A stretch of 64,000 nt of DNA from Actinomycetota bacterium (GCA_050692985.1 JBOGVZ010000047.1:76533-140532); one strand, 5' to 3'; counted from the first letter of the stretch, positions 1,975 to 55,081 are shown. Made by a program: numbers and translations. The notes: generated by a model from the sequence alone, not told the origin.

Positions 1975-2706
1975 ATGGCCACGGCCGAGACGGACCTGGT
2001 GACCACGTCCATGCGGGGGTTCTTCGACGGCCACCCCCACATCCGCTACCTGTTCTTCGGGGGCAAGGGCGGGGTGGGCAAGACCGCCATGGCCGGGACC
2101 ACCGCGGTGTCCCTGGCACGCCAGGGGACGCGAACGCTGCTGGCCTCCACGAACCCGGTGCACAGCCTGTCCGGCCTCCTGGACCAGGACGTGTTCGGCA
2201 AGGTCACCGACGTCGGCGGGGTGGAGAACCTGTCGGCCCTGGAGATCGACACCAAGGACGCCATCGAGCGCTCGAAGCGGGAGATCAAAGAGAAGGTCCA
2301 GTGGTTCCTGAAGTTCGCCGAGATCTCCACCAAGGAGGCCACCGAGTTCGTGGACGCGGCCACCATGAACCCGGCCTTCGAGGAGTCGGCCATGTTCGAG
2401 AACATGGTCGACCTGATCTTCAAGGACGAGTACGAGGCGTACGTGTTCGACACCGCCCCCACCGCGAACGCCCGGCGCCTGCTGGGGATGTCGAAGGTCT
2501 ACGGGCTGTGGGTCAACAAGATGGTGAAGTCGCGGGAGGAGGCCCAGGGCCTCCGTGAGCTGCTGTCGTTCACCAAGAAGAAGGAGGACGACCCGTTGAT
2601 GGAGTACCTGCTGGAGTTCCGGGAGCGCATCGCCCACGCCAAGGAGCTGCTCACCGACCCCGGCAAGACCGCGTTCTTCTTCGTCACGCTGCCCGAGGCC
2701 CTGCCG
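1975..2706 (+). pseudogene. ArsA/Get3-family P-loop ATPase, C-terminally truncated at about residue 244
   Basis: MATAETDL...YLFFGGKGGVGKTAMAGTTA (P-loop) ... YVFDTAPTANARRLL ... FFFVTLPEALP, after which homology stops abruptly at nt ~2706. The remaining 33 codons to the stop at 2808 are an off-frame reading of the opposite gene. About 80+ aa of the ArsA domain are missing. Confidence 0.65.
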
Positions 2707-3779
2707 ATGGCTCCCCGGAGGTGCTCGCCGCTCCCGGGGAAGCAGGTGAACTCGGGGAGGCCGTCCAGGGCCAGGTTCACCTTCCCCGACGACCCCCGGA
2801 ACTTGTAGCGACGCACGGCCGCCGTCACCGAGGGGTCGAGCACGCCGGGCTCCAGGAGGTCGAGGAAGGTCCGGCGGGCATCGACGCTGGAGAGCACCGC
2901 GTCGGCGTGGATCTCCTCCCCCGAGGCCAGGGCCACCCCCACGGCACGTTCGCCCCTGGTGAGGATGCGAGCCACCGGGGCCTCCAGGCGGATCTCGGCC
3001 CCGAACGAGCGGGCCGCCGAGGCGATGGCCTCGCTGGCGCCTCCGGTCCCCCCCCGGGGGATGCCCCATGCTCTATACACGCCGTCGATCTCCCCCATGT
3101 AGTGGTGGAGCAGGACGTACGCGGTGCCGGGCGAGCGGATGCCCTGGTAGGTCCCGATGATCCCCGACGCCGCCACGGTGGAGATGAGCGGGTCCGTCTC
3201 GAACCACTGCGACAGGAAGTCCACGGCGCTCATCGTCATGAGCTGGACGAACGTCCGCTGCTGCTCCCGGGACAGGTCCTCGAAGGAGCGGAGCAGGCCG
3301 GCGAGGGGAAGCCACTCACGGATGTCGATGCGGCCCACGTCCGGGGGCACCACCGACAGGATCGGCTTGATGAACCGGGCCATCTCCGCCATGAGCTGGC
3401 CGTACTCCTCGTAGGCCTCGGCATCGTGGCGTGACCACCGGCGGATCTCCCGCATCGTCCGGGCGTGGTCGTTCGTCCGCCACAGGTAGTCACCCTCCAG
3501 TGGCGTGAACGTGCCATCGAGGGGGAGGGAGGCGAATCCGTGGCGGGGGAGGCCGAGCTCCCGGATGATCTCCGGCCGGAGCAGGGAGATCACGTAGGAG
3601 GCCTCGCTGAACCGGAAGCCCGGGAACACCTCCTCCGTGACGGCCGCCCCGCCCACCACGTGGCGCCGCTCCAGCACGACCACCCGCCGGCCGGCCCGGG
3701 CCAGGTACGCGGCGGCCACCAGCCCGTTGTGCCCGCCCCCGATGACAACGGCCTCGAACCGCCGAGAGGTCGTGCCCAC
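2706..3779 (-). pseudogene. Phytoene-desaturase-family FAD/NAD(P)-dependent oxidoreductase (CrtI-like), C-terminally truncated at about residue 358
   Basis: MGTTSRRFEAVVIGGGHNGLVAAAYLARAGRRVVVLERRHVVGGAA (Rossmann GxGxxG) ... YKFRGSSGKVNLALDGLPEFTCFPGSGEHLRGAI, then homology is lost at nt ~2706. The remaining Ser-rich tail is antisense of the arsA-like gene. About 150 aa of the family's C-terminal domain are missing. Confidence 0.65.
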
Positions 3780-6841: not shown

Positions 6842-9800
6842 TCACCGAGACGTCGCCAGCATCTCCTCGGCGAACTCGGCGTGGCGGGGCATGCCCAGGC
6901 CCCGGTAGCCCGCCGCGGCCTCCTCGAGCATGGCCCGGGCCCGGTCCCCGTCCGCCGGGTTCCCCCACCGAAGCAGGGCGTGGGCGTGGAGCCTGCGCAC
7001 CTCAGGCACGTGGACCCGCTGGGGGAGGTCCTGGGCCTGGCGGAGCGCGGCGGCGAACCGCTCCTCGGCCTCGGCCCACCGGCCTCCGGCCGCCGCGGCC
7101 AGGCCCGCCACGGCGGGCAGGGGCCGCCCGTCCATCCCCCGCATGCGGACGCCCTTGGCCAGGGCCCGCTCCGCGTACCGGCCCAGCCCGGCCGCGTCCT
7201 CCCCCCGGCCCATCAGCGACAGGGACTCGATCGCGTACAGGACCATGGTCCACGCTCCGAACGTGATGGCCTCCTCCGGAGCGGGCAGCCGTCCCTCCCA
7301 CGCCCCGTAGAGCGCGAGGGCCTCGTCCTCGCGTCCGGCCTGGGCCAGATGGAGGAGGAGGGCCCCGGCGGACCAGCCCTCGAACGCCCCGGGGATCTCC
7401 AGCGAGACCGCCCGGCGGTGATGCTCCAGGGCCTCGTCCCACCGGCCCAACCACTCCGCCGAGATGGCCAGGAAGCTGTGCGACTGGGCCACCCACAGCT
7501 GCTCCAGCCGCTCACACAGCTCCAGGTCCCGGCGCGCGAAGGCCTCCACGGCCCGGAAGTCGCCCGTCCGTCCCACGTCCCGGAAGGCCCCGGCCCGCCC
7601 ATGCAGGATGATGGCCAGGCCCGATCCCACCCGCTCGGCGATCGGCGCCAGCTCCTCCCCCACCGCCTCGGAGGCCTCCAGGTCACCCAGGAAGAAGTGG
7701 CTGAACTCCACCAGGCCCAGCAGGACGGCCCGCTCCCACGGGCGATCGTGAAGGGCACCGGTGGCGTCGGCGCGGCGACCGGCCTCGACCGCGCCGGCGA
7801 ACTCCATGAACAGGTAGTCGGCGGTGGCCCGTCCCCCGTGCACGAACGCTTCCAGCCACGGATCCCCCAGCTCCCGGGCCAAGGCCAGGGCCTCCTCCTC
7901 CGTATCCAGGGCCGCGCGACGGTCGCCCGCCCACGCCAGGTAGGCCAGGTGGCCGGCCAGCAGCCGGACCCGGGCACCGTTCCGCATGCCGCCCGAGACG
8001 GTCAGCCCCCGCTGCACGAACTCCAGCCCCTCCACGGCCCGGCCGCTGTAGCCGAGCTCGTAGCCCAGGCGGGCGCAGAGCTCGGTCACGGCCTCGGGAT
8101 CGCCCAGCTCCGTGTACAGGTCGAGGGCCTGGCGCCACGCCGAGGCGGCGTCCCCGATCCGGCCCAGGCTCCGCAGGGCCAGCCCCAGTCGCACCAGGGC
8201 CTGGGCACGGGCCGGCGGGTCGCCCTCGATCAGCGACAGGGCGTTCTCGAAGTGGCCCAGGGCCTCCTCCCACGCGGCGCCGGCCATGGCTCGCTCCCCG
8301 GCCACGGTGAGGTATCGCCGGAGCTTGCCCGGGTCGACCCCCCCGCCGGCATTCAGCAGGTGGTGGATGAGCTCCTCGGCTCGCTCGTCCGCCCGTTCCC
8401 CCAGGCCGGCCTCGATGGCCTCGGCCACCTTCCGGTGCAGGCGCTGGCGACGGAGCGTGGACAGGCCCGCCAGCAGCGTCTGGCGGATCAGCTCGTGGGA
8501 GAACTCGAACCGCTGGCCGCCGTCGGCGGCGGCGATGAGCCGGGCGGCCTCGGCCGACTCCAGGGCGTCGAGCACCTGGTCCTCCCCGGTCCCGGCCACG
8601 GCCTCCAGGAGGTCCGTGTCGAAGCCCCGGCCGATCGTGGCCGCGGCGGCCAGGGTCTTGCGGCCCTCCTCGGTGAGCCGCTGGAGCCTCCGGCCGATCA
8701 CCAGCCGGAGGCTCTCCGGGACGTCGACCTCGTCCACCAGGACGTCGGTGCGCCACCGGCCGGCCTCGTCGATCAGGCGGCCCTCCTCCATCAGGTGCCG
8801 GACCACCTCCTCCACGAAGAACGCGTTCCCCTCGGTCTCCGCGTAGACGACCCGGACCACCTCCGGGGGCGGATCCTGGCCGGCCAGGCCGGCCATCATG
8901 GCCGCCACGGCCGGCTCGTCCAGCCGCTTCAGGGAGATCCGCTCGGCCAGGCGGCGACGCAGGAGGTCCTCGAGCGTCCGGGCCAGCGGGCGGTCCACCT
9001 CGAGCTCCACGTCGCGGTACGTGCCCAGGACCAGCAGGGGGACGTCGTCCAGGGACTCGGCCACGTGCTCCAACAGGAGCAGGGTGGGCTCGTCCGCCCA
9101 GTGGAGGTCGTCCAGGACCAGCAGCATCGGGCGGAGCTCGGCCGCTCGGCCGATGAAGTCCCGGATCGAGTTGAACAGGTAGCGGCGCTCCTGCTCGGGA
9201 GGAAGGTCCAGGGCCGGGGGGATGTCGCCGAACAGGCGCCGGATCTCGGGGACGATCCGGGCGATCTCCCCCGCGGACTCTCCGAGGAGCGCGCGCAGGG
9301 CCTCGGGGCTCCTGGCCCGGGCCACGGCCTGCTCCAGGATCGCCACCCAGGGCATGTACGGGAGGCCGCCCTCCGCCTGGGTGCAGTACCCCACCAGCAC
9401 ACGGGCCCCCCGCTGGTCGGCCTCCCAGGAGACCTCTTCGGCCAGGCGGGTCTTGCCCACCCCCGGCTCGCCACCGATCAGGACCAGCGATCCCCGGCCT
9501 TCCAGGGCCTCGTCCAGGTGCCGGCGAAGGTCGGCGCGTTCCTCGTCCCGGCCGATGAACGGCGTACGGGCCTGGTCCGGGGGAGCGACCGCCTTGCCCC
9601 CCCACCCCAGCTCGTGGAGCCGCCACCGCTGCGGGAACCCCTTGAGCCAGTACAGGCCTCGGTCCACCAGGGTGGGCCCATCGAGGCCCTCGGCGTGGGG
9701 GAGGAGGTCCTCGGACACCAGGATCTGGCCGCCCCGGGCGTGGGCGGAGATGCGGGCCGCCGCGTTGACGGTGGCACCGAACAGGTCGTCGCCCCGCTCG

Positions 9801-10102
9801 ATCACCTCCCCGGCGTGGAGCCCCATCCGCACCGACACCCCGGGCGCTTCCTCCGGCAGGCGGCGTTGGATGGCCACAGCGGCGTCGAGGGCGGTCCGGG
9901 GCTCGGGGAAGGAGAGCATGAACCCGTCGCCCATCGTCTTGACCTCCCGGCCGCGGCGGCGGGCGATCTCCTCGCGGACGATCCCCTCGTGGAGCTCCAG
10001 GAGGAACCGGCACTCCTGGTCGCCCACCCGGTTGGCCAGGTCCGTGGAGCCCACCACGTCGGTGAACAGCAGGGTGGCGGTACGGGCGGCTTCGTCGGTC
10101 AG
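6842..10102 (-). CDS. Multidomain class III adenylate/guanylate cyclase - AAA/NB-ARC ATPase - TPR protein (Rv0386/Rv1358-like architecture, no LuxR HTH)
   Basis: ...TATLLFTDVVGSTDLANRVGD...GDGFMLSFPEP...GLHAGEV (cyclase), then LIGGEPGVGKTRLA (Walker A) ... LVLDDLHWADEP, then a long TPR-like C-terminus. The conserved FTD metal-binding strand lies upstream of the first GTG (10057). An in-frame CTG at 10100-10102 sits 6 nt after GGGAGAGGA and is taken as the start. Confidence 0.85.
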   Translation of the reverse strand: MTDEAARTATLLFTDVVGSTDLANRVGDQECRFLLELHEGIVREEIARRRGREVKTMGDGFMLSFPEPRTALDAAVAIQRRLPEEAPGVSVRMGLHAGEVIERGDDLFGATVNAAARISAHARGGQILVSEDLLPHAEGLDGPTLVDRGLYWLKGFPQRWRLHELGWGGKAVAPPDQARTPFIGRDEERADLRRHLDEALEGRGSLVLIGGEPGVGKTRLAEEVSWEADQRGARVLVGYCTQAEGGLPYMPWVAILEQAVARARSPEALRALLGESAGEIARIVPEIRRLFGDIPPALDLPPEQERRYLFNSIRDFIGRAAELRPMLLVLDDLHWADEPTLLLLEHVAESLDDVPLLVLGTYRDVELEVDRPLARTLEDLLRRRLAERISLKRLDEPAVAAMMAGLAGQDPPPEVVRVVYAETEGNAFFVEEVVRHLMEEGRLIDEAGRWRTDVLVDEVDVPESLRLVIGRRLQRLTEEGRKTLAAAATIGRGFDTDLLEAVAGTGEDQVLDALESAEAARLIAAADGGQRFEFSHELIRQTLLAGLSTLRRQRLHRKVAEAIEAGLGERADERAEELIHHLLNAGGGVDPGKLRRYLTVAGERAMAGAAWEEALGHFENALSLIEGDPPARAQALVRLGLALRSLGRIGDAASAWRQALDLYTELGDPEAVTELCARLGYELGYSGRAVEGLEFVQRGLTVSGGMRNGARVRLLAGHLAYLAWAGDRRAALDTEEEALALARELGDPWLEAFVHGGRATADYLFMEFAGAVEAGRRADATGALHDRPWERAVLLGLVEFSHFFLGDLEASEAVGEELAPIAERVGSGLAIILHGRAGAFRDVGRTGDFRAVEAFARRDLELCERLEQLWVAQSHSFLAISAEWLGRWDEALEHHRRAVSLEIPGAFEGWSAGALLLHLAQAGREDEALALYGAWEGRLPAPEEAITFGAWTMVLYAIESLSLMGRGEDAAGLGRYAERALAKGVRMRGMDGRPLPAVAGLAAAAGGRWAEAEERFAAALRQAQDLPQRVHVPEVRRLHAHALLRWGNPADGDRARAMLEEAAAGYRGLGMPRHAEFAEEMLATSR

Positions 10103-10170
10103 GGCGGATCCTCTCCCGGGCGTTCGATCCCAGATTGTCCCGCAGCTGCCGGTCCGGCGCCTACCCGTTT

Positions 10171-10244
10171 CACTGGGGGGTTCGCTCGCTGTTCACTCTG
10201 ACGCTTCCATCGCCCCCGGCGAGCTACACCCCCCGGACCCCCCC
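10171..10244 (+). repeat. Copy A of a ~73-nt GC-rich hairpin repeat (CACTGGGGGGTTCGCTCGC...GGCGAGCTACACCCCCCGGACCCCCCC)
   Basis: Shares its 5' 20 nt and 3' ~26 nt with the copies at 26232, 56804, 56878 and, inverted, 34454. The central ~27 nt are unique. Its 3' end supplies the last codons and the TAG stop of the P450 gene (...LRVRGGVRGV*). Confidence 0.8.
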
Positions 10245-11990: not shown

Positions 11991-14612
11991 ATGGCCGAGC
12001 TGCCCACCGGGACCGTCACGTTCCTGTTCACCGACATCGAGGGATCGACCCGGCTGCTGGCCGAGCTGGCGGAGGGATACCGGGACGTCCAGGCGGACCA
12101 CTTCCGCCTGATGCGTAAGGCCATGGCCGAGGGGGGCGGGGTGGAGATCCGCACCGAGGGCGACGCGTTCTTCGTGGTGTTCCCCAGCCCCGCCGGGGCG
12201 GTGAAGGCGGCAGCGGCCGCTCAGCGGAAGCTGGCCGCCCACCACTGGCCCGGTGGCCGCCCGGTGCGGGTGCGGATGGGCATGCACACCGGCGAGGGCG
12301 TGCTGGGAGGCGACGACTACCTGGGCATCGACGTGAACCGGGCGGCGCGCATCGCCGCAGCCGGTTACGGCGGCCAGGTCCTGCTGTCCTCGACCACGAA
12401 GCCGCTCGTCGAACGGAACCTCCCCCAGGGCGTGGCCCTCCGCGACCTGGGCGCGCATCGGCTCAAGGACTTCGACCAGCCCGAGCACCTCCACCAGCTG
12501 GTGATCGAAGGGCTGCCCGTCGGACTTCCCCGCCCTCAAGACCCTCGACGCTCGCCCCACAAACCTGCCCACCCCCCGGACCTCGTTCATCGGGCGGGAT
12601 CGGGAGGTGGCCGCGGTGGCCGAGGCGGTGGGAGCCTCCCGCCTGGTGACGCTGACCGGCCCCGGGGGCACCGGGAAGACCCGCCTGGCCATCCAGGCCG
12701 GGGACGGCCTGCGGGACGATTTCCCCGACGGGGTGTTCTTCGTGGACCTGTCCCCGATCGCCGATCCGGACCTGGTCGGCCCCGCCGTGGCCGAGGCCCT
12801 GAAGGTCATGGAGGAGCCCGGGCGGGCGCTGCTCGACGCCGTGGCCGACCACCTCCGCGACCGGGACACCCTCCTGGTGGTGGACAACTTCGAGCAGGTG
12901 ATCCAGGCGGCCGGCGTGGTGGAGCGGCTCCTCGACACTGCCCCCGGGGTACGGGTCCTGGCGACCAGCAGGGAGCCACTGCACCTGTCCGGGGAGCGCG
13001 AGGTCCCCGTGCCTCCGCTCGAGCTCCCCGATCCCTCGGACCTCCCGGCGGTCGACGTCCTGACTCACTACGAGGCCGTGGCCCTGTTCATCGACCGGGC
13101 CACCGCGGTGCGGCCGGGGTTCCGGGTGACGAACGAGAACGCCCCCGCCGTGGCGGAGCTGGTGGCCCGGCTGGACGGGCTGCCGCTGGCGGTCGAGCTG
13201 GCCGCCAGCCGCGTCAAGATCCTCACACCCCAGGCCATGCTGGCCCGGCTGGGCCAGCGGCTGCCGCTGCTCACCGGCGGGGCCCGCCACCTGCCCGAGC
13301 GCCAGCGCACCCTCCGAGGGGCCATCGAGTGGAGCCACGACCTCCTCGACGACGAGGAACGGCGGGTCTTCGCCCGTCTGGCGGTCTTCGCCGGGGGCTG
13401 GACCCTGGAGGCGGCCGAGGCGGCCTGCGGCGACGGCGTCGACGTGCTCGACAGGCTGGACTCGCTGGTGGACCGAAGCCTGGTCCGGCGCATCGATGAG
13501 GACGAGGGCGAGCCGCGGTTCACGATGCTGGAGACGATCCGTGAGTTCGCCGGCGAGCGGCTCGGGGAATCGGGCGAGGAGGAAGAGGTCCGGCGGCGCC
13601 ACGCCGGGTTCTTCCGGAGCTTGGCCGAGGAGGCCGGGCCGCACCTCGAGGCCGAGGAGCAGGTCGCGTGGCTGGACCGCCTGGACCGCGAGCGCGACAA
13701 CCTGCGGACGGCCATGTCCTGGGCGATCGACAGCGGCGAGGCGGAGGGCGGACTGGGGCTGGCCGCGCCCATCTGGCGGTTCTGGCAGCACCGGGGTCCG
13801 CTCTCCGAGGGACGCGGGTGGCTGGAGCGTCTCCTGGCGCTGCCACCCGCTCAGGAACGGTCGCCGGCCCGGGCCCGGGCGCTCGAAGCCCTGGGGAACG
13901 TGGCCTACTGGCAGAACGACTACGCGGCCACCCGGAAGGCCTACGCCGAGGCCGAGAGCCTCGCTCGCCGGCTCGGGGACAAGAGGTTCCTGGCCCGGGT
14001 GCTGTGGGACCAGTCCTACATGGCCGGGATCGACGGTGACCTCGACAGGGGAGAGGCGGCCCTCCTCGAGGCTCGGCAGGCGGCCCAGGAAGCCGGCGAC
14101 CGGGCCGCCACCGCGCTGGTGATGGTGGACCTGGGTTCCTCCGGCACAGGCGAGGGGACAGCCTCGGTGGCCGCGAACAGATGCGGCAGGGGATCGCCAT
14201 CATGGAGGAGCTCGGCATGACCGGGCTGCTGGCCGACAACATCGGAGTGCTCGGCATGCTCGACCTCGTCCTTGGCGACGTCAACGATGCCCGCCTCCAC
14301 CTCCGGCGGGCCATGGATCTGACCGTGGAAGCGGGAAGCGAGATGGGGATCGCCCAGATGCTCCTGGGGGTGGCCCTGCTCGCTCAGGCCGAGGGCCGCC
14401 ACGAACGTGCCGCGCGCCTCCTGGGCGCGCAGGCCCGGATCCAGGAGACCCTTGGTGGCGCCCCCCCGCCGGAGCTCCTGGCCCCGTTCGGCGACCCGGA
14501 GGCGGATGCCCGCACCGCCCTGGACGACGAGACCTTCGAGCGCGCCTGGGCCAAGGGCCGAGCCATGACCACGGAAGAGGCGGTTGCCTACGCCCTGGAG
14601 GAGGAGGGATAG
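11991..14612 (+). pseudogene. Second cyclase - NB-ARC/AAA - TPR gene, disrupted by two compensating frameshifts (+1 near 12519, -1 near 14136)
   Basis: Frame 0: MAELPTGTVTFLFTDIEGST...GDAFFVVF... cyclase through ...QLVIEGLP. The protein continues in frame +1 (SDFPALKTLDARPTNLPTPRTSFIGRDREVAAV...LTGPGGTGKTRLA...TPR...ATALVMVDLG). It then returns to frame 0 (FLRHRRGDSLGGREQMRQGIAIMEELG...TTEEAVAYALEEEG, the typical C-terminus of this family). Frame 0 between the two shifts is Arg/Gly/Pro junk. Confidence 0.7.
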
Positions 14613-16432: not shown

Positions 16433-17410
16433 TCAGGTACCCTTCGCCGGGGGGTGGGTGTCGCGGATCTTGAACAGCCGGACGCGGCCCACGCCCTTGA
16501 GGCTCCGGCTCCCGATCCGCCTCGCGTCCACCGCGTCGCGGCCGACCGCGTCGACGAATTCCTCGGAGGCCACCACGGAGCTGGGCCGGGCGAAGGCGGT
16601 GATCCTGGCGGCCACGTTGACGGGCCGCCCGAAGTAGTCGCCGCCCAGGGCCACCACCTCGCCGTAGTCGAGCCCGGCCCGGGCCGCAGGGAGGACCTCC
16701 GATCCCTCGGCCCGGCGGACCACGGTGGCGGCGGCCTCCAGGGCCCGAGGGGCCTCCGTGGAGACGAACATCACCGCGTCGCCGATCACCTTCACCAGGC
16801 GGGCTCCGGCCTCGGCGCAGGCCTCCACGGCCAGGTCCTCGAAGGCGTCGATCATCCCGCCCAGCTCCTCGCCGGGCAGGTCCTCGGAGATGCGGGAGAA
16901 GTCCACCAGGTCCACGAACCCGGTGGCCAGCGCGGAGCCCTCGCCGGTCCCGGCGGCCCGCAGCCCGTTCAGGGCCAGGAACAGGTGGCGGCGGTGGGCC
17001 TGGTCGAGGAGGTGGGCAGTGCTCTCCAGCAGCGAGTCCATCACGGGGCGGAGCCGCTCCTCCATCCCCTCACCGGGCTCGACGGCCATGGCCCCCAGGA
17101 TGCGGTCGCGGAACAACCTCGTCTCCGCGTCGGCGATCCGGGCCAGCGTGGTTCCGTACAGCCTGGTCACGGTGAGCATCTCGTCGGGCGGAACCCCGAG
17201 CTCCATGATGCCCCGGAGCAACGCCAGCGCCTCGACGTCACGGTCGTCGAACACGACCTCCCGGTCGTCCGGCTCGGGCATCCCCAGGGCCCGCCACACC
17301 CGCTTGGCCAGCGTCAGGTCGAGCCCGGCCTTGGCCGCGGCCTCCGGGGCGGTCAGGTGCGGCGGAGGGGCGAAGCTCTCCGCGGGGGGTGGCAGCGGTC
17401 GCTCGGACAG
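16433..17410 (-). CDS. Class III adenylate cyclase with N-terminal regulatory domain (Rv1264-like)
   Basis: C-terminal cyclase ATGFVDLVDFSRISEDL...KVIGDAVMFV...GEVVALGGDYFGRPVNVAARI. The N-terminal ...GLDLTLAKRVWRALGM resembles the Rv1264 regulatory domain. Conserved residues extend upstream of the first GTG (17299) to a TAG. The only plausible start is CTG at 17408-17410, 6 nt after AGGAGG. Confidence 0.8.
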   Translation of the reverse strand: MSERPLPPPAESFAPPPHLTAPEAAAKAGLDLTLAKRVWRALGMPEPDDREVVFDDRDVEALALLRGIMELGVPPDEMLTVTRLYGTTLARIADAETRLFRDRILGAMAVEPGEGMEERLRPVMDSLLESTAHLLDQAHRRHLFLALNGLRAAGTGEGSALATGFVDLVDFSRISEDLPGEELGGMIDAFEDLAVEACAEAGARLVKVIGDAVMFVSTEAPRALEAAATVVRRAEGSEVLPAARAGLDYGEVVALGGDYFGRPVNVAARITAFARPSSVVASEEFVDAVGRDAVDARRIGSRSLKGVGRVRLFKIRDTHPPAKGT

Positions 17411-17530
17411 GTCGGGCCTCCTGGGTTCTGCAAGAGCCTACCCGCTGGACCGCTGGGCCATGCGGGGCCCGAAGACCGCACCGGGGGCCGCTTGCTACTG
17501 TCTTCGCTGACCGAGCGGTGGGGATGGCGG

Positions 17531-28904: not shown

Positions 28905-29513
28905 GTGGCACCGCGGCGGAAGGGAACGCTCGAGGAATACCGGCGCAAGCGGGACCTGCGCCGCACCCCCGAGCCGTCCGGGGGGCGGCGGAGGCGCGGC
29001 AAGGAGCCTCGCTTCGTGATCCAGAAGCACGACGCCACCGCTCTGCACTACGACTTCCGGCTGGAGGCCGCCGGGGTGCTGAAGTCGTGGGCCGTGCCCA
29101 AGGGACCCTCCACGGATCCGAGGGACAAGCGCCTGGCCATGCCCACCGAGGACCATCCGCTCGACTACGCGGACTTCGAGGGTGTGATCCCCGAGAAGAA
29201 CTACGGGGCCGGCCCGGTGATCGTGTGGGACGCGGGGACCTACCGGAACCTCACCGAGAGGGACGGACGTACGGTCCCGGTCGAGGACGCGGTGAACGCC
29301 GGGCACGTCAAGGTGTGGCTGGACGGACACAAGCTCACCGGCGGCTTCTCGCTCCGCCGCACCCGGATCGGCACCGACGGGCGGGAGAAGTGGCTGCTGG
29401 TCAAGCTCCGGGACGAGGCCGCCGACGCGCGCCGCAACCCGGTCAGCACGCAACCCCGGTCGGTGACGAGCGGGCGAACGATCGAGGAGGTCTCCGCCGA
29501 GGAGGCCCCGTGA
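28905..29513 (+). CDS. Stand-alone LigD 3'-phosphoesterase (PE) domain protein
   Basis: ...RFVIQKHDATALHYDFRLEAAGVLKSWAVPKGPSTDPRDKRLAMPTEDHPLDYADFEGVIP...GHVKVWLDGHKLTGGFSL, the LigD-PE signature. Confidence 0.8.
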   Translation: MAPRRKGTLEEYRRKRDLRRTPEPSGGRRRRGKEPRFVIQKHDATALHYDFRLEAAGVLKSWAVPKGPSTDPRDKRLAMPTEDHPLDYADFEGVIPEKNYGAGPVIVWDAGTYRNLTERDGRTVPVEDAVNAGHVKVWLDGHKLTGGFSLRRTRIGTDGREKWLLVKLRDEAADARRNPVSTQPRSVTSGRTIEEVSAEEAP

Positions 29514-38642: not shown

Positions 38643-39557
38643 TCACTGGGGGGTTCGGACGGCGAAGGCCAGGGGCCGCCCCGGCTCCCGCGACTTGCAG
38701 GTGAGGATGCGGGGGTCGCGCCGTCCGACGGCGACCTCCACCCGGTGGCGGGGACCGTCCACCTGGTCGAACTCGACGACGTGGCGGCCCCGAGCCAGCC
38801 GCCGGACCGCCCGGAACGCCAGGTCCTCGACCCCGACGATCCCGTGCCGCTCCCGGACGAAGTGCTCGGCGGCCTGGACGGCCGGCGGATAGGCCGAGCG
38901 CCCCCTGTAGAACGGCAGGGCGATCCGTCCCCGGGCGTAGGCCTCGGCCACCCCTACCGCATCGCCCGGTCCCACCCGTCCGAAGTACAGCCCGTGGGGG
39001 AAGCACACCACGTTGCCGGCGAAGCGGTCGCCGCCCACGTGGGTGGCCTCCCACACCGCTCCGTCCCCGAACCCGGCCAGGGCCCGGTACAGGGGCCCGC
39101 CCAGGCGGGCGCAGCAGGGGTCGTGCTTGCCATGGGTGCACACCAGGTAGAGCGGCCCGGGCACGGGCTCACCGAACCCCTCGAACCGCCGCCCCACCAG
39201 GGCGTCGAGGTCCAGCTCCATCAGCCAGGCCGGGTCGTCGACCTCGAAGCTGGCCACCCGGTGACGGTCCCGCCCGGTGTGCGCCACGAAGCACCTCCGT
39301 GGCACCGCCACCGGCCGCTGCCGCTGCTTGACGAGCAGCACGCGCATGCCCAGCCGCGTTCCGGCCTCGGCCAGCCTGGCCCCGACGTCGGGAGGGAACG
39401 CGCTGTCGACCAGGGCGTCGTGCCCCCACCGGCCGGGCTGCTCGATCAGCAGCCAGGAGCGGAACCGCGACGCCGTGCCGGCCAGGGGCTCGTCGGCCGC
39501 CAGGGAGACCGCGGAGCACACCGCCCCCTCAGCGGCCACCTGTGACCTCGAGGGCAC
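38643..39557 (-). CDS. Sucrase/ferredoxin-like (thioredoxin-like [2Fe-2S]) family protein
   Basis: ...LYLVCTHGKHDPCCARLGGPLY..., the characteristic Cys cluster. Its last codons and TGA stop (CCC CAG TGA) are formed by the 5' terminus of repeat fragment C. Confidence 0.65.
   Translation of the reverse strand: MPSRSQVAAEGAVCSAVSLAADEPLAGTASRFRSWLLIEQPGRWGHDALVDSAFPPDVGARLAEAGTRLGMRVLLVKQRQRPVAVPRRCFVAHTGRDRHRVASFEVDDPAWLMELDLDALVGRRFEGFGEPVPGPLYLVCTHGKHDPCCARLGGPLYRALAGFGDGAVWEATHVGGDRFAGNVVCFPHGLYFGRVGPGDAVGVAEAYARGRIALPFYRGRSAYPPAVQAAEHFVRERHGIVGVEDLAFRAVRRLARGRHVVEFDQVDGPRHRVEVAVGRRDPRILTCKSREPGRPLAFAVRTPQ
38644..38658 (+). repeat. Fragment C: only the 15-nt 5' terminus (CACTGGGGGGTTCGG) of the hairpin repeat
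   Basis: Identical to the first 14-15 nt of copies A and D. The rest of the element is absent. Confidence 0.5.
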
Positions 39558-46371: not shown

Positions 46372-46645
46372 ATCCGCCCTCCGTGAGCGCCTGGCGGATC
46401 GCCCGGGCCTGATCGGCGAACACGAAGGAGAACACCAGGACGATGGCCAGGAAGATGAGGTACCCGGCCGCCGCCATGGACCCCAGGTGCCTCAGGAGGA
46501 CGGGCCACCCGGGGGCCGGGCCGCTCGCCCGCCGCCGGGCCTTGGGAGAGCGCCGGTAGACGAAGAACATCACCAGGAAGCCCACGTACGCACAGCCCAG
46601 GGGAGCCACCACGCCTCCCCAGATCCCTCCGCCCAACGGCTCCAT
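46289..46645 (-). CDS. Hypothetical small membrane protein
   Basis: MEPLGGGIWGGVVAPLGCAYVGFLVMFFVYRR...AAGYLIFLAIVLVFSFVFADQ..., hydrophobic helices with positive-inside loops. Confidence 0.4.
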   Translation of the reverse strand: MEPLGGGIWGGVVAPLGCAYVGFLVMFFVYRRSPKARRRASGPAPGWPVLLRHLGSMAAAGYLIFLAIVLVFSFVFADQARAIRQALTEGGFIAFVGLAGLASLGWVEGQVRRRTRPH

Positions 46646-46654
46646 CCGCCTGCC

Positions 46655-46870
46655 TCAGTCCCGCAGGAAGAACTGCCACCCGCGAACGAACAGGTGCCAT
46701 CCGAGCCACAGCCACACCGCGAAGAGCACCCATCGCCCCACCACGCTCCGGGTGACCACGTCGAGCATGTCGCTGATCGTGGGGAAGCTCGGTCCGGACA
46801 CCATGGCCAGACCCTGCCAGATGAAGAAGAGGGCGACCAGGACGGCCCATCCAACGAGCGCCATCATCCG
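46655..46870 (-). CDS. Hypothetical small membrane protein (Trp-rich)
   Basis: Internal Met of ORF 46655..47338: MRMMALVGWAVLVALFFIWQGLAMVSGPSFPTISDMLDVVTRSVVGRWVLFAVWLWLGWHLFVRGWQFFLRD. Confidence 0.35.
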   Translation of the reverse strand, partial: RMMALVGWAVLVALFFIWQGLAMVSGPSFPTISDMLDVVTRSVVGRWVLFAVWLWLGWHLFVRGWQFFLRD

Positions 46871-46965
46871 CATCTTCCCTAAGTACGGAGCGAGCCGCCA
46901 CCGATGCTGGGATCGGCCGCGACCGGCGTCCGGGAGACGTGTGGTAAAAGCAGATCCGAGCGACA

Positions 46966-49322
46966 TGCCTGGGGGGGAACGCGTCGAAGGCGGCCGGGAT
47001 CCCCTCGACACGCCACCTCCGAGCCTCCCGGTCGACGAGGCCCGAACGATCGCCGAGCGCGTCTTCGGGGTGCGCGGATCGGTCTCCGCGCTGCGGAGTG
47101 AGCGGGACCAGAACTTCCGGGTCGATGCGGAGAGCGGACGCGGATACGTCCTCAAGGTCTCCAACCCCGCCGACGACCGGTCGGTCATCGAGATGCAGGC
47201 CGAGTCGCTGCTGCATGTCCGGCGCCAGGGTCCAGATCTGCCGGTGATGCGCCTCCTGCCGACGCCAGACGGAGCCCTGTGGGGGGAGATCCCGGGACCC
47301 CGGGACGATCCCCTTCTCGTGCGGATGTTCACCCTCATGCCGGGGCGGATGGTGAGGCCCGGGGAGCTGGATCACCGGGCCCTGGCCCGCTTCGGGCGGC
47401 TGGTGGCTCGGATGGGGCTGGCCCTCCGTGGGTTCTTCCACCCCGCCGCCGACTACGAGATCCTGTGGGATCTCAAGCACGCCCCCCGGCTACGGCCGCT
47501 CCTGGATGCCGTCGAGGAACCCGGCCGGCGCTCGCTGGCCGAGGGGGTGCTCGACCGGTTCGAGGAGCGCGTGGCGCCGGTCCTGGACGGCCTGCGGGCG
47601 CAGGTCATCCACAACGACCTGACGATCGACAACGTCCTCCTCGACGATGGGCGGAGGGTCAGCGGCATCGTCGACTTCGGCGATCTCACCCACACGGCCC
47701 TGGTCTGCGATCTGGCGATCGCGCTGGCCTCGCTGATGTGGGAGCGACCCGACCCCTTCGAGGCCGCCGCGGCGGCGATCCGCGGCTACGTCGAGGTGCT
47801 GCCCCTCGAGGAGCCGGAGGTTGATCTCCTCGGCGACCTGGTGGCCGCCCGGGTTGCCGCATGGGGCGTGATCGCGGCGTGGCGCGTCCGTCGGTTCCCC
47901 GACAACACCGACTACATCACCGCGGGCGACGATGCCGCGTGGCGCCTCCTCGAGGACCTCGACCGGATCGGGCCGCCTGAGGTCGGGCGGCGGCTCCGAG
48001 AGACCGGGCTCGATGCGCCTCTCCCGTACCGGAGGGTCCGCAGCGAGGAGCTCCTGGAGCGCCGCCGCCGGGTGCTCCGACGATCGCCGCTGACGTACGA
48101 GAGACCGGTGCACCTCGTCCGGGGGGAAGGGGTGTGGATGTTCGATCCGCACGGGCGACGGTACCTGGACGCGTACAACAACGTGCCCGTCGTGGGGCAC
48201 GGTCATCCACGGGTGACGGCGGCGGTCGCGGAACAGGCCCGCAGGCTGAACACGAACACCCGCTACCTGCACGAGGCCGCGGTGGAGCTTGCCGAGAGAC
48301 TGGTGGCCACGATGCCCGGCGACCTCGACACGGTCCTGTTCGTCAACTCGGGGAGCGAGGCCAATGACGTCGCGTGGCGCCTGGCCCGGGCAGCGACCGG
48401 CGGGGATGGGGCCATCGTCACCGAGCACGCCTACCACGGCATCACCGAAGCGACCGCGGCGCTGTCACCGGAGGAGTGGGCGAGGGGCGAGTGCCCCGGG
48501 CACGTCGAGCTCGTGCCGGCCCCGGACGGGTACCGGGGGCGGTACCGACGCGAGGACGGAGGGTGGGCCGAGCGGTACGCGGCGCACGTCGGAGAGGCCG
48601 TGGCCAGGCTGAGGGAGCGCCCGATGCGGCTCGCGGCGATGTTCGTCGATCCGGCCTCGACCAGTGACGGCGTCCTGGTCCCGCCGGATCCCTACCTCCG
48701 AGGGGTGGCCCCGCTGGTCCGGGAGGCGGGAGGCCTGCTGGTGGCTGACGAAGTGCAGGCGGGTCACGGCCGATACGGCTCGCATCTATGGAGCTTCCAG
48801 GCCTCCGGCGTGGAGCCGGACATCGTCACGTTGGGCAAGCCCATGGGCAACGGACATCCGGTGGCGGCGGTGGTGACCAGGGCCGAGATCCTCGATGCGC
48901 TCACCAGAGACACCGAGCTGTTCAGCACGTTCGGCGGCAACCCGGTGTCCTGTTCCGCGGCCCTGGCCGTGCTCGAGGTGATCGAGGAGGAAGCGCTCAT
49001 GCAGCGCGCGGCGACGGTCGGCGCCTACCTGCGGAGGGGCTTCGAACGGCTGAGCGAGGCCCACGTACAGATCGGCGACGTCCGGGGCGAGGGCCTCCTC
49101 ATCGGCGTCGAGCTCGTTCGCGACCGGCAGACGCGCGAGCCGGCACGGCAGGAGGCCGGGGCCGTGGTCAACACCATGCGGGAGCGCGGTGTCCTGCTCC
49201 GCTCGACGGGGCCGGAGGGGAACGTGCTGAAGATCCGGCCCCCGCTGGTCTTCACCGGTGAGCACGCGGACCTGCTCCTGGGAACGCTGGCCGCCGTGCT
49301 GGACGATGTGGACCATCGATGA
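46966..49322 (+). CDS. Fusion of an APH/choline-kinase-like phosphotransferase domain with a class III aminotransferase (kinase + PLP phospho-lyase-type architecture)
   Basis: N-terminal half ...YVLKVSNPADD...VIHNDLTIDNVLLDDGRRVSGIVDFGD (Brenner HxD and DFG-like). C-terminal half ...VNSGSEANDVAWRLAR...LLVADEVQAGHGRYGSHLWSFQASGVEPDIVTLGKPMGNG. Confidence 0.85.
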
Positions 49323-51021: not shown

Positions 51022-51112
51022 GCCCGGCCGCCGATCTCCCGGGGAGACCGGAGCGGGGTCATACGCTCCAGCAGCGGTGTGCGCCGGCGCCGGGATGCGT
51101 TTCCGCAGGTCG

Positions 51113-51187
51113 TGCGCCCGGAGGGACTCGAACCCCCAACCTCCTGATCCGTAGTCAGACGCTCTGTCCAAATTGAGCTACGGGCGC
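51113..51187 (-). tRNA. tRNA-Arg (anticodon ACG)
   Basis: Reverse complement GCGCCCGTAGCTCAATTTGGACAGAGCGTCTGACTACGGATCAGGAGGTTGGGGGTTCGAGTCCCTCCGGGCGCA folds as a cloverleaf with 7-bp acceptor stem, anticodon loop CTACGGA and a GTTCGAGTC T-loop. CCA is not encoded. Confidence 0.85.
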
Positions 51188-51191
51188 TGCG

Positions 51192-51280
51192 CGGAGGCGG
51201 TGCGATTTGAACGCACGAGGGGCTTGCACCCCAACGGGATTAGCAATCCCGCGCCATAGACCAGACTAGGCGACGCCTCC
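51192..51280 (-). tRNA. tRNA-Ser (anticodon GCT), class II with long variable arm
   Basis: Reverse complement GGAGGCGTCGCCTAGTCTGGTCTATGGCGCGGGATTGCTAATCCCGTTGGGGTGCAAGCCCCTCGTGCGTTCAAATCGCACCGCCTCCG, with anticodon stem CGGGA/TCCCG and loop TTGCTAA. Confidence 0.85.
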
Positions 51281-51365
51281 TCCTCCGACCAAAGTGTACC
51301 GGACCGTGGCCGGCGGGGAACCGCCCGGAGGGAGGACGCTGGGGCGGCACGGCTACAATGGCCGC

Positions 51366-52229
51366 ATGGCCCAGGGCACCAGCGGCACCCCCTCACCCGT
51401 CCTGGGGATCGCGGGTCCCGTCATCCTCATCGGTGGCGCCGAGGACAAGCGGCGCGACAAGGTCATCCTGAGCCGGTTCGTGGAGCTTGCCGGAGGCCCG
51501 AACGCCAACATCGTGGTCATCAGCACCGCCTCGACGTTCGCGGAGCTGGCGGCGGAACGGTACGTCGAGCTGTTCTCCGAGCTGGGAGCCGGAGTCGTCA
51601 CCGGCGTCCGCCCCCTGTCACGTGAGGAGGCCAACGACCCCGCCACGGTCGCCCCCCTGGCCACGGCCACGGGGGCGTTCCTCACCGGCGGCAACCAGGT
51701 CCGGCTGATCTCCACGGTCGGGGGGACCCGGCTCGAGGACGCCCTGGCCTCGGCCCGTGACCGCGGGGCGGCCATCGCGGGGACCTCGGCCGGGGCGAGC
51801 GCCGCGGCCACCCACATGGTGGCCTTCGGCCGGTCGGGGGCCAGCCCCAAGCACCGCATGATCCACATCTCGGCCGGACTGGGCCTGGTGGACGGGATCA
51901 TCGTGGACCAGCACTTCGAGCAGCGCGGACGCATGGGCCGGCTCCTGGCCGCGGTGGCCCTGTCCCCCCGCTTGATCGGCATCGGGCTCGACGAGGACAC
52001 GGCCGCCATCATCTGGCCGGACCGCACGCTGGAGGTGATCGGGAAGGGGTCGGTGACGATCGTGGACGGCTCCCAGATCGCCACGGACTCGTTCCAGATG
52101 AAGGGCCACCGCCCCATGATGGTCTCCGGGGCCATCGTCCATGCCCTCCCCACGGGGTTCCGGTTCGACCTGCGGGGGCGGCGGCTGATCGAGGTGAGCG
52201 AGCCCGAGGTCCGGGAGGCCTCCGAGTGA
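51366..52229 (+). CDS. cphB: Cyanophycinase (S51 peptidase)
   Basis: ...PVILIGGAEDKRRDKVILSRFVELAGG...AIAGTSAGASAAATHM (Ser nucleophile)...GLGLVDGIIVDQHFEQRGR. An alternative upstream GTG start exists at 51294. Confidence 0.85.
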   Translation: MAQGTSGTPSPVLGIAGPVILIGGAEDKRRDKVILSRFVELAGGPNANIVVISTASTFAELAAERYVELFSELGAGVVTGVRPLSREEANDPATVAPLATATGAFLTGGNQVRLISTVGGTRLEDALASARDRGAAIAGTSAGASAAATHMVAFGRSGASPKHRMIHISAGLGLVDGIIVDQHFEQRGRMGRLLAAVALSPRLIGIGLDEDTAAIIWPDRTLEVIGKGSVTIVDGSQIATDSFQMKGHRPMMVSGAIVHALPTGFRFDLRGRRLIEVSEPEVREASE

Positions 52230-55081
52230 GCCGGCCCGCCCGATCCTCCCCGAAGGGGTCCCGCACGGCGTCCAGGGATGCCCGGGCCAGGGCCAAGCGC
52301 GAGCCGGCCTCCAAGAAGCCGCCGGCCCGGCCCGACCTGAAGATCCTCAAGACCCAGGTGTTCCGGGGACCAAACTACTACTCGTACGACCCCACCATCC
52401 GCCTGCTGGTCGACCTGGGCTCGCTGGAGCACTGGCCGTCGAACACGATCAAGGGCTTCAACACGGCGCTGCGGGAGCTGCTCCCGGGTATGGCGGACCA
52501 CTCCTGCTCGCTGGGACGGCAGGGCGGCTTCCTGGAGCGGCTCGACGACGGCACCTGGCTGGGCCACGTGGCCGAGCACGTGGCCCTGGAGCTCCAGCGC
52601 GAGGCGGGGACGCACATCTACCGGGGCAAGACCCGCAGCGCCGGAGCCCCCGGCCGCTACAACGTGATCTACGGGTACAGCGAGGAGCGGGTGGGGCTGG
52701 CCGCCGGCACCCTGGCCGTGCGGCTGGTCAACCACCTGGTCGAGGCCGAGGAGGCATTCGACTTCCTGGCCGAGCTGGAGAGGCTCATCCTCCTGGCGGA
52801 GCGGCGGGCCTTCGGCCCATCCACCCAGGCGCTCATCGACGAGGCCGCCAGCCGCGACATCCCCTACATCCGGCTCAACGAGGCGTCCCTGGTCCAGCTC
52901 GGTCAGGGCACCTACCAGCGGCGGATCCGGGCCACGATGACCTCGCTCACCCCGGCCCTGGCCGTGGACATAGCCGGAGACAAGAACCTCACGAACCGGT
53001 TGCTGGGTGCCGCCGGGTTGCCGGTCCCCCGCTCGGAGACCGTGCGCACCGAGGACGACGCGGTGGCCGCGGCCAAGCGGATCGGGTTCCCCGTGGTGAC
53101 CAAGCCCCTGGACGGGAACCACGGCCGCGGGGTGAGCCTGGAGCTCGCCACCGAGCGGGACGTGCGCCGGGGGTGCAGGCGGGCCCGGGACGAGTCCCGC
53201 CGGGGGGTCGTGGTCGTGGAGAGCTACGTGACCGGCAACGACTACCGGGTGCTGGTCATCGGTGGCCACATGGTGGCGGTGGCCCAGCGGGTCCCTGCCC
53301 ACGTGATCGGCGACGGCACCCACACGGTCCGCGAGCTGGCCGACATCGCCAACGAGGACCCCCGTCGGGGCATCGGGCACGAGAAGGTGCTCACCAGGAT
53401 CAAGGTGGACGAGGCCGCCGAGGCCCTGGTCAGGAAGCAGGGCTACGCGCTCGATGACGTCCTCCCCGAAGGCGAGATGGCCCTGCTGGTGGCCACCGGC
53501 AACATGTCCACCGGGGGCAGCTCGATCGACCGCACCTGGGAGGCCCACGAGGAGAACGTGGAGATCGCCGAGGAGGCCGCCCGGGTGGTCGGCCTGGACG
53601 TGGCCGGCATCGACTTCCTGACGCCCGACATCTCCCAGCCCGTCCGGGAGACCGGCGGAGCCATCGTGGAGGTCAACGCGGCCCCCGGCTTCCGGATGCA
53701 CACCCATCCCACCGAGGGCGAGCCGCAGTACGTGGCCAAGCCGGTGGTGGACCTGTTGTTCCCCCCCGGGTCACCGTCCCGGATCCCGATCGTGGCCGTC
53801 ACCGGCTCGAACGGGAAGACCACCACCGTTCGGATGATCGCCCACATCTTCGAGCGCATGGGGCGGAAGGTGGGCGTCACCACCACCGACGGCATCTACG
53901 TCGACGGCCGCCTGGTGCGGAAGGTAGACGCCAGCGGCCCCAAGTCGGCGCTGATGGTCCTCCAGAACCCCCGCGTGGACTTCGCCGTGTTCGAGGTGGC
54001 CCGGGGCGGGATCCTCCGTGAGGGTCTGGGCTACGGGCGAAACGACGTGGCCGTGGTGCTCAACGTCACCGGAGACCACCTGGGGCTGAAGGACGTCGAC
54101 TCCCTGGAGGACCTGGCCGAGGTCAAGCGGGTCGTCGTGGAGGCCGTCCCCCGGACCGGCATGGCCGTGCTCAACGCCGACGACCCCCTGGTGGCCGACA
54201 TGCGCAAGCACACCCGCGGCTCCGTGGTGCTGTTCTCGATGGAGGACCGCAGCGAGCTCGTTGAGCGGTGGGTCCGGCGGGGGAACAAGGCCGTCACGCT
54301 CGAGCGCGACGACCGGGGAGAGCGCATGGTGATCCGCGAGGGTCGCCGGTCGATGCCGATCGCCTACACCCACAACCTGCCGGCCACGTTCAACGGCCGG
54401 GCCCGGATGATGGTCCAGAACGCCCTGGCCGCCGCGGCGGCCGCCCATGCCGCCGGCGCCCACCTCCACGACATCCGCCAGGGGCTGCGGACGTTCACGA
54501 CCTCGATCTTCCAGGCACCGGGACGCCTGAACCTGGTCGACCTGGCCGGGATCAAGGTGCTGATCGATTACGCCCACAACCCCCACGGACTGGAGATGGT
54601 GGGCGACTTCGTGGAGCGCATCACCGCCGAGGCACCCGGTGGCGCCCCGCCCGGTGCGCCGTCGTGGTCGGCCAACCTGCGGGTTGCGGTGGTGGCCACC
54701 CCCGGCGACCGCCGCGAGGACGACATGCGGGAGCTGGGCCGGGTGGCCGCCCGATACTTCGACGACGTCATCATCCGGGAGGACGAGCATCCCCGCGGCC
54801 GCAAGCGCGGTGAGACCGCGGCGTTCATCCTGGAGGGCGTGCAGGAGGCCATGCGGGCCGGTGCCCGGGCGGGCAGCGTGGAGATCGTGCTCGAGGAGGA
54901 CGAGGCCGCCCGGCGGGCCCTGGACCGCAGCCGGCCGGGCGACCTGGTGGTGGTGTGCGTGGACCACGCCGACCGGGTGTGGCGAGAGCTCGAGACCCGC
55001 CGCAAGGCCGCCCTGGGCCTGCCGCCAACGGCCGGCGATGGCCAGGGCGCCGAGATCCCGGAGCTGGCCCCGGAGCTCTGA
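52226..55081 (+). CDS. cphA: Cyanophycin synthetase (N domain + ATP-grasp G domain + Mur-ligase M domain)
   Basis: GTG overlapping the cphB stop. ...VVTKPLDGNHGRGVSLEL (ATP-grasp) ... IVAVTGSNGKTTTVRM (Mur-ligase P-loop) ... IDYAHNPHG. Confidence 0.9.
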   Translation: MSRPARSSPKGSRTASRDARARAKREPASKKPPARPDLKILKTQVFRGPNYYSYDPTIRLLVDLGSLEHWPSNTIKGFNTALRELLPGMADHSCSLGRQGGFLERLDDGTWLGHVAEHVALELQREAGTHIYRGKTRSAGAPGRYNVIYGYSEERVGLAAGTLAVRLVNHLVEAEEAFDFLAELERLILLAERRAFGPSTQALIDEAASRDIPYIRLNEASLVQLGQGTYQRRIRATMTSLTPALAVDIAGDKNLTNRLLGAAGLPVPRSETVRTEDDAVAAAKRIGFPVVTKPLDGNHGRGVSLELATERDVRRGCRRARDESRRGVVVVESYVTGNDYRVLVIGGHMVAVAQRVPAHVIGDGTHTVRELADIANEDPRRGIGHEKVLTRIKVDEAAEALVRKQGYALDDVLPEGEMALLVATGNMSTGGSSIDRTWEAHEENVEIAEEAARVVGLDVAGIDFLTPDISQPVRETGGAIVEVNAAPGFRMHTHPTEGEPQYVAKPVVDLLFPPGSPSRIPIVAVTGSNGKTTTVRMIAHIFERMGRKVGVTTTDGIYVDGRLVRKVDASGPKSALMVLQNPRVDFAVFEVARGGILREGLGYGRNDVAVVLNVTGDHLGLKDVDSLEDLAEVKRVVVEAVPRTGMAVLNADDPLVADMRKHTRGSVVLFSMEDRSELVERWVRRGNKAVTLERDDRGERMVIREGRRSMPIAYTHNLPATFNGRARMMVQNALAAAAAAHAAGAHLHDIRQGLRTFTTSIFQAPGRLNLVDLAGIKVLIDYAHNPHGLEMVGDFVERITAEAPGGAPPGAPSWSANLRVAVVATPGDRREDDMRELGRVAARYFDDVIIREDEHPRGRKRGETAAFILEGVQEAMRAGARAGSVEIVLEEDEAARRALDRSRPGDLVVVCVDHADRVWRELETRRKAALGLPPTAGDGQGAEIPELAPEL

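Follow-up and report, generated by a model that had tools for sequence, protein, structure and literature searches.

Bacterial scars of microhomology-mediated illegitimate recombination have joints that lie inside unrelated genes and share 3–6 nt, come without a repeat, an insertion sequence or a site-specific recombinase, and leave open reading frames (ORFs) that run on into the antisense of another gene. The locus described here has all of these features; it differs from a single two-ended deletion in having two joints, 0.82 kb apart, that enclose a fragment of a third locus. A second parallel is SPDIR (short-patch double illegitimate recombination), in which ectopic DNA with a microhomology at each end replaces resident sequence, an arrangement also seen here; SPDIR, however, yields microindels, and the patch in our locus is about 820 bp long (bioRxiv 10.1101/2023.11.22.568220). 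The process was demonstrated experimentally in a proteobacterium, and our locus gives no indication of a single-strand annealing origin. Templated insertions are described for rearrangements of the FoSTeS/MMBIR type, e.g., complex chromosomal insertions in humans (PMC5120786), where, as here, the rearrangement joint contains several hundred bp taken from another locus and each of the two join points shows microhomology; this class is defined by a donor locus that stays intact, and it is documented mainly in eukaryotes. The resemblance to SPDIR and to FoSTeS/MMBIR is one of layout, and by this analogy the locus may belong to either class. One also has to keep in mind the chimeric contigs of metagenome-assembled genomes (MAGs), in which, as here, loci that have nothing to do with each other are placed side by side, halves of genes are lacking and the pieces show no decay; typical assembler chimeras arise where the loci share a repeat or a conserved gene no shorter than the k-mer, whereas the joints here share 3–6 nt and occur in two deposited assemblies.

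The window analysed is the whole 64,000-nt stretch (about 73% G+C) of DNA from an Actinomycetota bacterium (GCA_050692985.1, JBOGVZ010000047.1:76533-140532), and positions are counted from its first letter. Near its left end, three segments that belong to three separate loci in relatives follow one another directly: segment A, a minus-strand M20/amidohydrolase gene devoid of its first 34 codons (809–1889); segment B, on the plus strand, made of the final 29 codons of arsA1 together with its stop codon (1883–1972), followed by codons 1 to 244 or 245, out of about 331, of arsA2 (1975–2708); and segment C, on the minus strand, codons 1–358, out of about 530–570, of an FAD oxidoreductase gene of CrtI type, CrtI-a (2706–3779), with about 180–200 C-terminal residues missing. 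The truncated copies are hereafter written M20', arsA2' and CrtI-a'. This anatomy, with its two breakpoints, its truncations and its lack of synteny, is a genuine anomaly of the sequence, with more parts to it than the original prediction had foreseen, but of a known kind and without functional implication beyond gene loss. The ArsA/GET3, CrtI-like and M20 fragments are ordinary members of their families that have been truncated.

The plus-strand ORF crossing the right joint (1975–2808, 277 aa) carries the P-loop GKGGVGKT (as FFGGKGGVGKT) and scores 174.5 bits against TIGR00345, for a cut-off of 135, yet it matches only positions 1–216 of the 299 of that profile; the PF02374 (ArsA_ATPase) match is likewise restricted to residues 24–245 (profile 2–220 of 305, E = 2.3e-49). 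Full-length ArsA2 proteins of the clade are about 331 aa long, with a domain of about 300 profile positions that arsA2' covers only in part, and these matches identify arsA2' as a fragment of a member of the TRC40/GET3/ArsA ATPase family (TIGR00345, PF02374), not as a functional member. Its closest full-length homologue, P0002 (331 aa), is 93% identical in amino acids over a 245-residue query and 92% in a 249-residue tblastn alignment; at the nucleotide level, arsA2' is 91% identical to the arsA locus L002.

The minus-strand ORF that crosses the same joint in the opposite direction (3779–2499, 426 aa) opens with the FAD/NAD Rossmann GxGxxG motif at its N-terminus, here VVIGGGHNGL (PF13450, E = 2.3e-12). 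Its residues 7–361 match positions 3–364 of the 563 of the CrtO model NF045689, and PF01593 (Amino_oxidase) is matched over positions 3–294 of 443. TIGR02734, the model of the phytoene desaturase (CrtI) family, is covered over positions 1–283 of 504 with 70.5 bits (cut-off 238.1), and the CrtO equivalog score is 159 for a cut-off of 1000; a complete C-terminal substrate and FAD domain and a sufficient whole-protein score are both wanting in CrtI-a'. Over the homologous part, it is 86% identical to P0121 (557 aa).

According to the original prediction, the ATPase is recognisable up to FFFVTLPEALP and the oxidoreductase up to GEHLRGAI, both ending at 2706, with noise beyond. The tblastn searches with full-length homologues agree on both counts, and so do the profile matches for the ATPase: the last residues of ArsA identity are ...FFFVTLPEALP (codon 244, ending at 2706), followed by an ambiguous M/I-A, plus-strand ArsA-type homology stopping at 2706–2711, and the last residues of CrtI-like identity are ...GEHLRGAI (codon 358, nt 2708–2706). 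What follows in each frame is the other gene read backwards. The 33-residue tail of the 277-aa ORF (2709–2808, plus strand) is not ArsA but antisense CrtI-a, and it matches the reverse strand of relatives' CrtI genes with 76–79% identity; past codon 358, the CrtI-a' ORF (2499–2705, minus strand) is, by tblastn, a Ser-rich antisense translation of arsA2. That the ArsA and CrtI homologies end together is no chance event.

The same comparison bears on another reading, in which the 277-aa and 426-aa ORFs would be genuine functional variants, either naturally short or newly fused. Both are open, and the product of the first is deposited as an ordinary protein, MGH2723700.1, “MAG: ArsA family ATPase [Actinomycetota bacterium]”, to which it is identical. 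Against this, the homologues run well past the truncation points, by a median of 87 residues (minimum 35) for 119 ArsA2 proteins and of 181.5 residues (minimum 66) for 120 CrtI-a proteins, at least one of the two shortest CrtI-a homologues being labelled partial; none of these 239 proteins stops at the truncation residues, each ORF tail is the antisense translation of the other gene, and for the CrtI-a ORF the protein collection holds no product of 100% identity, the best match being at 86%. We find this reading barely credible. Natural short forms had been named beforehand as the observation that would overturn the original prediction, and the survey of 119 ArsA2 and 120 CrtI-a homologues yielded none; the claim that both proteins lack parts that their families always have, amounting at the median to 87 C-terminal residues for the ATPase and about 181 for the oxidoreductase, holds, as does, almost certainly, the claim that both genes are dead. 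To judge from these truncations, arsA2', CrtI-a' and the arsA1 tail are almost certainly dead, and the locus is a collection of three or four pseudogene fragments from which no function is expected.

The original prediction assumed a single breakpoint. A junction with nucleotide-scale precision does exist at about 2706, but a second one, overlooked until now, lies 0.82 kb upstream, at 1884–1889. Homology to the arsA loci of relatives begins at 1884, 90 nt before the arsA start codon, and the nucleotides in between are where arsA1, the ArsA paralogue lying upstream, comes to its 3' end: 1883–1972 is about 90% identical in nucleotides to the arsA1 end of L002, and the ArsA1 of L003 matches this tail with residues 304–334 (tblastn, E = 1.7e-7). 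The antisense read-through of the M20 gene also matches L002, and arsA1 directly precedes arsA2 in all five arsA loci (L002, L003, L175, L176 and L177). To the left of 1889 lies the minus-strand M20 amidohydrolase gene that lacks its first 34 codons. DNA homology to its closest counterparts, L089 (85% nucleotide identity) and L090, stops exactly at 1889; residues 35–365 of the L089 protein correspond to 1888–890 of the window; TIGR01891 matches M20' from profile position 17 onwards with 227 bits (cut-off 153.75); and 119 M20 homologues have, at the median, 35 more N-terminal residues than M20'. The gene has thereby lost its native start, its ribosome-binding site and the operon upstream, and a downstream TTG is a candidate start codon. 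An independent bracket for the island comes from blastn against L177, with a matching block of 1884–2711. As the two breakpoints fall at 1884–1889 and 2706–2711, the interval 1884–2711 is therefore a 0.82-kb arsA1–arsA2 island between two unrelated truncated genes.

In relatives, segment B stems from a conserved module, cstA–(221 aa)–DUF7990–DUF7990–arsA1–arsA2, which ends with the arsA pair and which, in L175, sits in a tig–clpP–clpX...valS neighbourhood. The gene downstream of arsA2 in the five loci is TetR-like, GcvT-like, valS or a GATase (the first two labels being a reading of the sequences), and never a CrtI-like gene. Segment C comes from a cluster in which CrtI-a is followed by its paralogue CrtI-b, 41–43% identical to it, in 9/9 CrtI-a loci (L004–L008 and L091–L094), then by a GcvT-family gene where the contig reaches that far, and in most cases by EamA and Amidohydro_3 genes. 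Segment A, which also takes in an aminotransferase gene, represents an operon cut after codon 34 of M20; the two close M20 loci, L089 and L090, both have the order GlnS-like–Amidohydro_2–M20–class-III aminotransferase. In the window, the genes upstream of CrtI-a' on the minus strand encode an Ala-rich protein of 142 aa whose C-terminal tail is acidic, along with a Ser/Thr kinase and a LytR-family protein.

These contexts weigh on the explanation first proposed, namely that arsA2 and the CrtI-like gene had been convergent neighbours and that one deletion of about 0.7–0.9 kb removed both 3' ends. The right joint taken by itself would suit such an event, as it is clean, with a 3-nt microhomology, and as the minimum of missing coding sequence (87 plus about 181 codons, i.e., about 0.8 kb) fits the size of at least 0.7 kb that had been estimated. 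However, arsA2 never adjoins a CrtI-like gene in the relatives examined, the place downstream of CrtI-a is always taken by CrtI-b, and a single deletion leaves the breakpoint at 1884–1889, with arsA1 cut down to 29 codons and M20 beheaded, without explanation: the arsA piece is itself only a 0.82-kb island whose left end is an illegitimate joint to the 5'-truncated M20 gene. We consider this deletion very improbable. The absence of arsA2–CrtI adjacency and the second breakpoint therefore make the locus a three-segment mosaic and not the product of one deletion.

We looked for an ancestral adjacency of the three loci and found none in the contexts of the five arsA, nine CrtI-a and two close M20 loci. 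Two candidates were rejected in the process: in L089, a gene of the CrtI family lies at a distance of 8 kb from M20, but it is only 37% identical, is on the opposite strand and is not an orthologue, and in L177 the vicinity of arsA2 includes FGGY and adh_short genes, the former being only 27% identical to the flanking gene of the window and not an orthologue either. GTDB species representatives queried with M20 gave a best match of 63% without conserved synteny; a metagenome scan with the neighbouring Ser/Thr kinase, for a shared right-hand context, gave a best match of only 48% identity; and no close relative (>95% identity) with the ancestral arrangement turned up. Searches of the 64 kb by tblastn with full-length homologues found neither the missing body of ArsA1, the C-termini of ArsA2 and CrtI-a, nor CrtI-b; the missing GcvT-family, Amidohydro_2 and GlnS-like genes are not in the 64 kb either. 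An inversion with its reciprocal joint inside the window is discarded, since tblastn detects no C-terminal ArsA2 or CrtI-a pieces in the 64 kb; a reciprocal joint may lie beyond the window, on the 167,687-bp contig.

Several observations on these clusters may be added. The four-gene module DUF7990–DUF7990–arsA1–arsA2 lies just downstream of cstA at 6370–9002 in L003, 8159–11068 in L175 and 2022–4931 in L176; its two ArsA paralogues are 35–38% identical to each other, and its matches to the NCBIfam models of mycobacterial BagA and BagB are far below cut-off. In relatives, the cluster of CrtI-a, CrtI-b, GcvT-family, EamA, Amidohydro_3 and M20 genes includes a small gene with a reverse-transcriptase domain (RVT_1), 154–227 aa in length (9698–10315 in L005, 11536–12219 in L091 and 18778–19242 in L093), which is absent from the window.

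At the joints themselves, the shared nucleotides were inferred with relatives (81–91% nucleotide identity) as proxies for the parental sequences, and the microhomologies are to be read as such. At the left joint, the M20 and arsA1 sides would have in common the 6 nt TCCTGG (1884–1889), according to the columns aligned with the reverse complements of L089 and L090 and with L002: the M20 side reads ...GGTGCTCCTGG up to the joint and tggc after it, and the arsA1 side ...gaca up to the joint and TCCTGGCCC after it. At the right joint, where the blastn block with L177 ends at 2711, the proxies share the 3 nt GAT (2706–2708): the arsA2 side reads ...CTGCCGAT and then cgc (also written ...CTGCCGAT(C)GC), and the reverse complement of the CrtI side reads ...CTGATGGCNCC (also written ...ctGAT, then GGCNCC). 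By our own arithmetic, in which any one base matches with a probability of about 0.30 given the 73% GC, random joints would show a microhomology of at least 6 nt in about 0.4% of cases and of at least 3 nt in about 9%. With these proxy sequences, both joints have what defines a microhomology joint, that is, 2–10 nt shared exactly at the joint and no long repeat. The junction region has no repeat of more than 23 nt in common with other parts of the window, and neither joint coincides with a repeat, which makes it unlikely that a de Bruijn or overlap assembler misjoined the loci at shared repeats. Pfam scans of the ORFs across the window revealed no transposase or integrase family.

Whether the molecule existed in a cell is a separate matter. 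The identical junction is found on two separately deposited contigs, of 167,687 bp (GenBank MAG) and 74,118 bp (GCA_975305695.1), which are 100% identical across the 8,808 bp compared and may come from the same reads. The three segments are not distinguishable by GC, GC3 or skew, and GC3 is 0.93–0.98 in all of them, which is consistent with one genome. The gene fragments have kept intact frames, free of stops, and their dN/dS of 0.15–0.20 equals that of intact orthologue pairs, so that relaxed selection on the fragments is undetectable by this measure. There is thus no sign of a long existence as pseudogenes, a state of affairs that an artefact would also produce.

The artefact in question would be a chimeric DNA molecule, from library construction, amplification or long-read sequencing, or a contig-level misjoin of three loci of the same or related genomes, in which case the actual genome would have intact M20, arsA1–arsA2 and CrtI-a genes. 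Several features are in keeping with it: a stretch of 2 kb brings together three unrelated loci, the fragments are in pristine state and have dN/dS like that of functional genes, every missing half is absent from the 64 kb, a search of JGI metagenome contigs with the junction 24-mer returned no matches, and the two identical contigs may be non-independent. In-vitro template-switch chimeras, moreover, carry short microhomology too. On the other side, graph assemblers need shared k-mers, and a chimera formed by an assembler at a shared repeat calls for identity of k-mer length (at least about 21 nt), whereas the joints here share 6 nt and 3 nt only; most reads would have to carry not one but two chimeric joints, with 0.82 kb between them; and the same structure appears in two assemblies from two submissions, on contigs of unequal size. 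Taken together, we regard an artefact as rather unlikely, and the available sequences lean moderately towards a real and recent rearrangement.

On that basis, an uncultured actinobacterium of high GC content has probably undergone a recent illegitimate recombination mediated by microhomology, of which the locus would be the scar. Segments from three loci, i.e., the M20 operon, the 0.82-kb arsA1–arsA2 piece and the CrtI cluster, would have been joined head to tail, the joints being formed by microhomology-mediated end joining or by template switching. An in-vivo origin and these mechanisms are what we infer from the layout and from the proxy-based microhomologies, and two routes may be envisaged. 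In route (a), everything happened in one complex event: a collapsed fork, or a break that separated the CrtI cluster from the M20 operon, would have been repaired with a 0.82-kb templated copy, or with captured arsA filler DNA, in a deletion or rearrangement joint; an intact arsA1–arsA2 pair would then be expected elsewhere. In route (b), the arsA locus would have supplied one end of each of two separate deletions or inversions, and a 0.82-kb relic would have been left; one would then expect either that no intact arsA copy remains or that the 167-kb contig carries reciprocal joints at other places. The window taken alone appears to fit both routes alike. It contains no second arsA copy in its 64 kb, and the protein database holds no full-length ArsA2 of about 100% identity, the next match being at 93%.

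A stronger version of route (a) would make the locus a natural, population-fixed case of “large-patch” double illegitimate recombination or template switching, a single event having placed a 0.82-kb copy of arsA1–arsA2, a locus of a housekeeping neighbourhood, at a break between unrelated operons by way of the 6-nt and 3-nt microhomologies. Were it true, this would be a bacterial counterpart of the templated insertions of MMBIR/FoSTeS. SPDIR patches are reportedly tens of nucleotides long, and the present one would be about ten times longer. We see this version as quite doubtful.

As for end-joining functions, the window encodes a stand-alone LigD 3'-phosphoesterase, an end-joining accessory (28905–29513, plus strand; PF13298, E = 2.5e-42); its ORFs, as scanned, include no Ku, ligase or primase-polymerase domain. 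The LigD 3'-phosphoesterase gene comes directly after an MFS_3 transporter gene.

If reads confirm the junctions, the probable recombination scar described above would provide a clean, natural, two-joint microhomology-mediated mosaic in Actinomycetota, of modest interest for studies of illegitimate recombination, of end joining and of how uncultured bacteria lose genes. Its biological weight is small, as it consists of dead gene fragments in a MAG, without a new function or system. The practical consequence concerns the databases. MGH2723700.1 consists of ArsA residues 1–245 followed by about 32 residues of antisense CrtI, and M20' is deposited as a normal 351-aa NCBI protein (809–1873), with a 354-aa call on the second contig; both records can mislead homology-based annotation. 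Since the protein collection lists nothing 100% identical to the CrtI-a fragment, this gene was probably either left uncalled or marked as a pseudogene.

Elsewhere in the window, the ARAGORN predictions of tRNA-Pro(GGG) and tRNA-Thr(GGT) at 17229–17318 and 39154–39234 (minus strand; 90 and 81 nt) lie inside coding-like ORFs, fall short of the gathering score that Rfam sets for tRNAs, and are thus likely to be false positives. Two other tRNAs, tRNA-Arg(ACG) and tRNA-Ser(GCT), both confirmed by Rfam, lie within 51112–55081 and adjoin genes for a Peptidase_S51 (cyanophycinase-like) and a cyanophycin-synthetase-like protein. Two genes with an adenylate/guanylate-cyclase domain are found on the minus strand (6842–10192 and 16433–17437), one of them encoding a large cyclase–AAA_16–TPR signalling protein of about 1,100 aa, and a STAND-type NTPase gene lies at 12505–14220. 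Lastly, a single stop-to-stop frame on the plus strand (46560–49322) encodes an APH phosphotransferase (residues 177–410) and then a complete class-III aminotransferase (residues 517–914), which is either a kinase–aminotransferase fusion or two adjacent in-frame genes.
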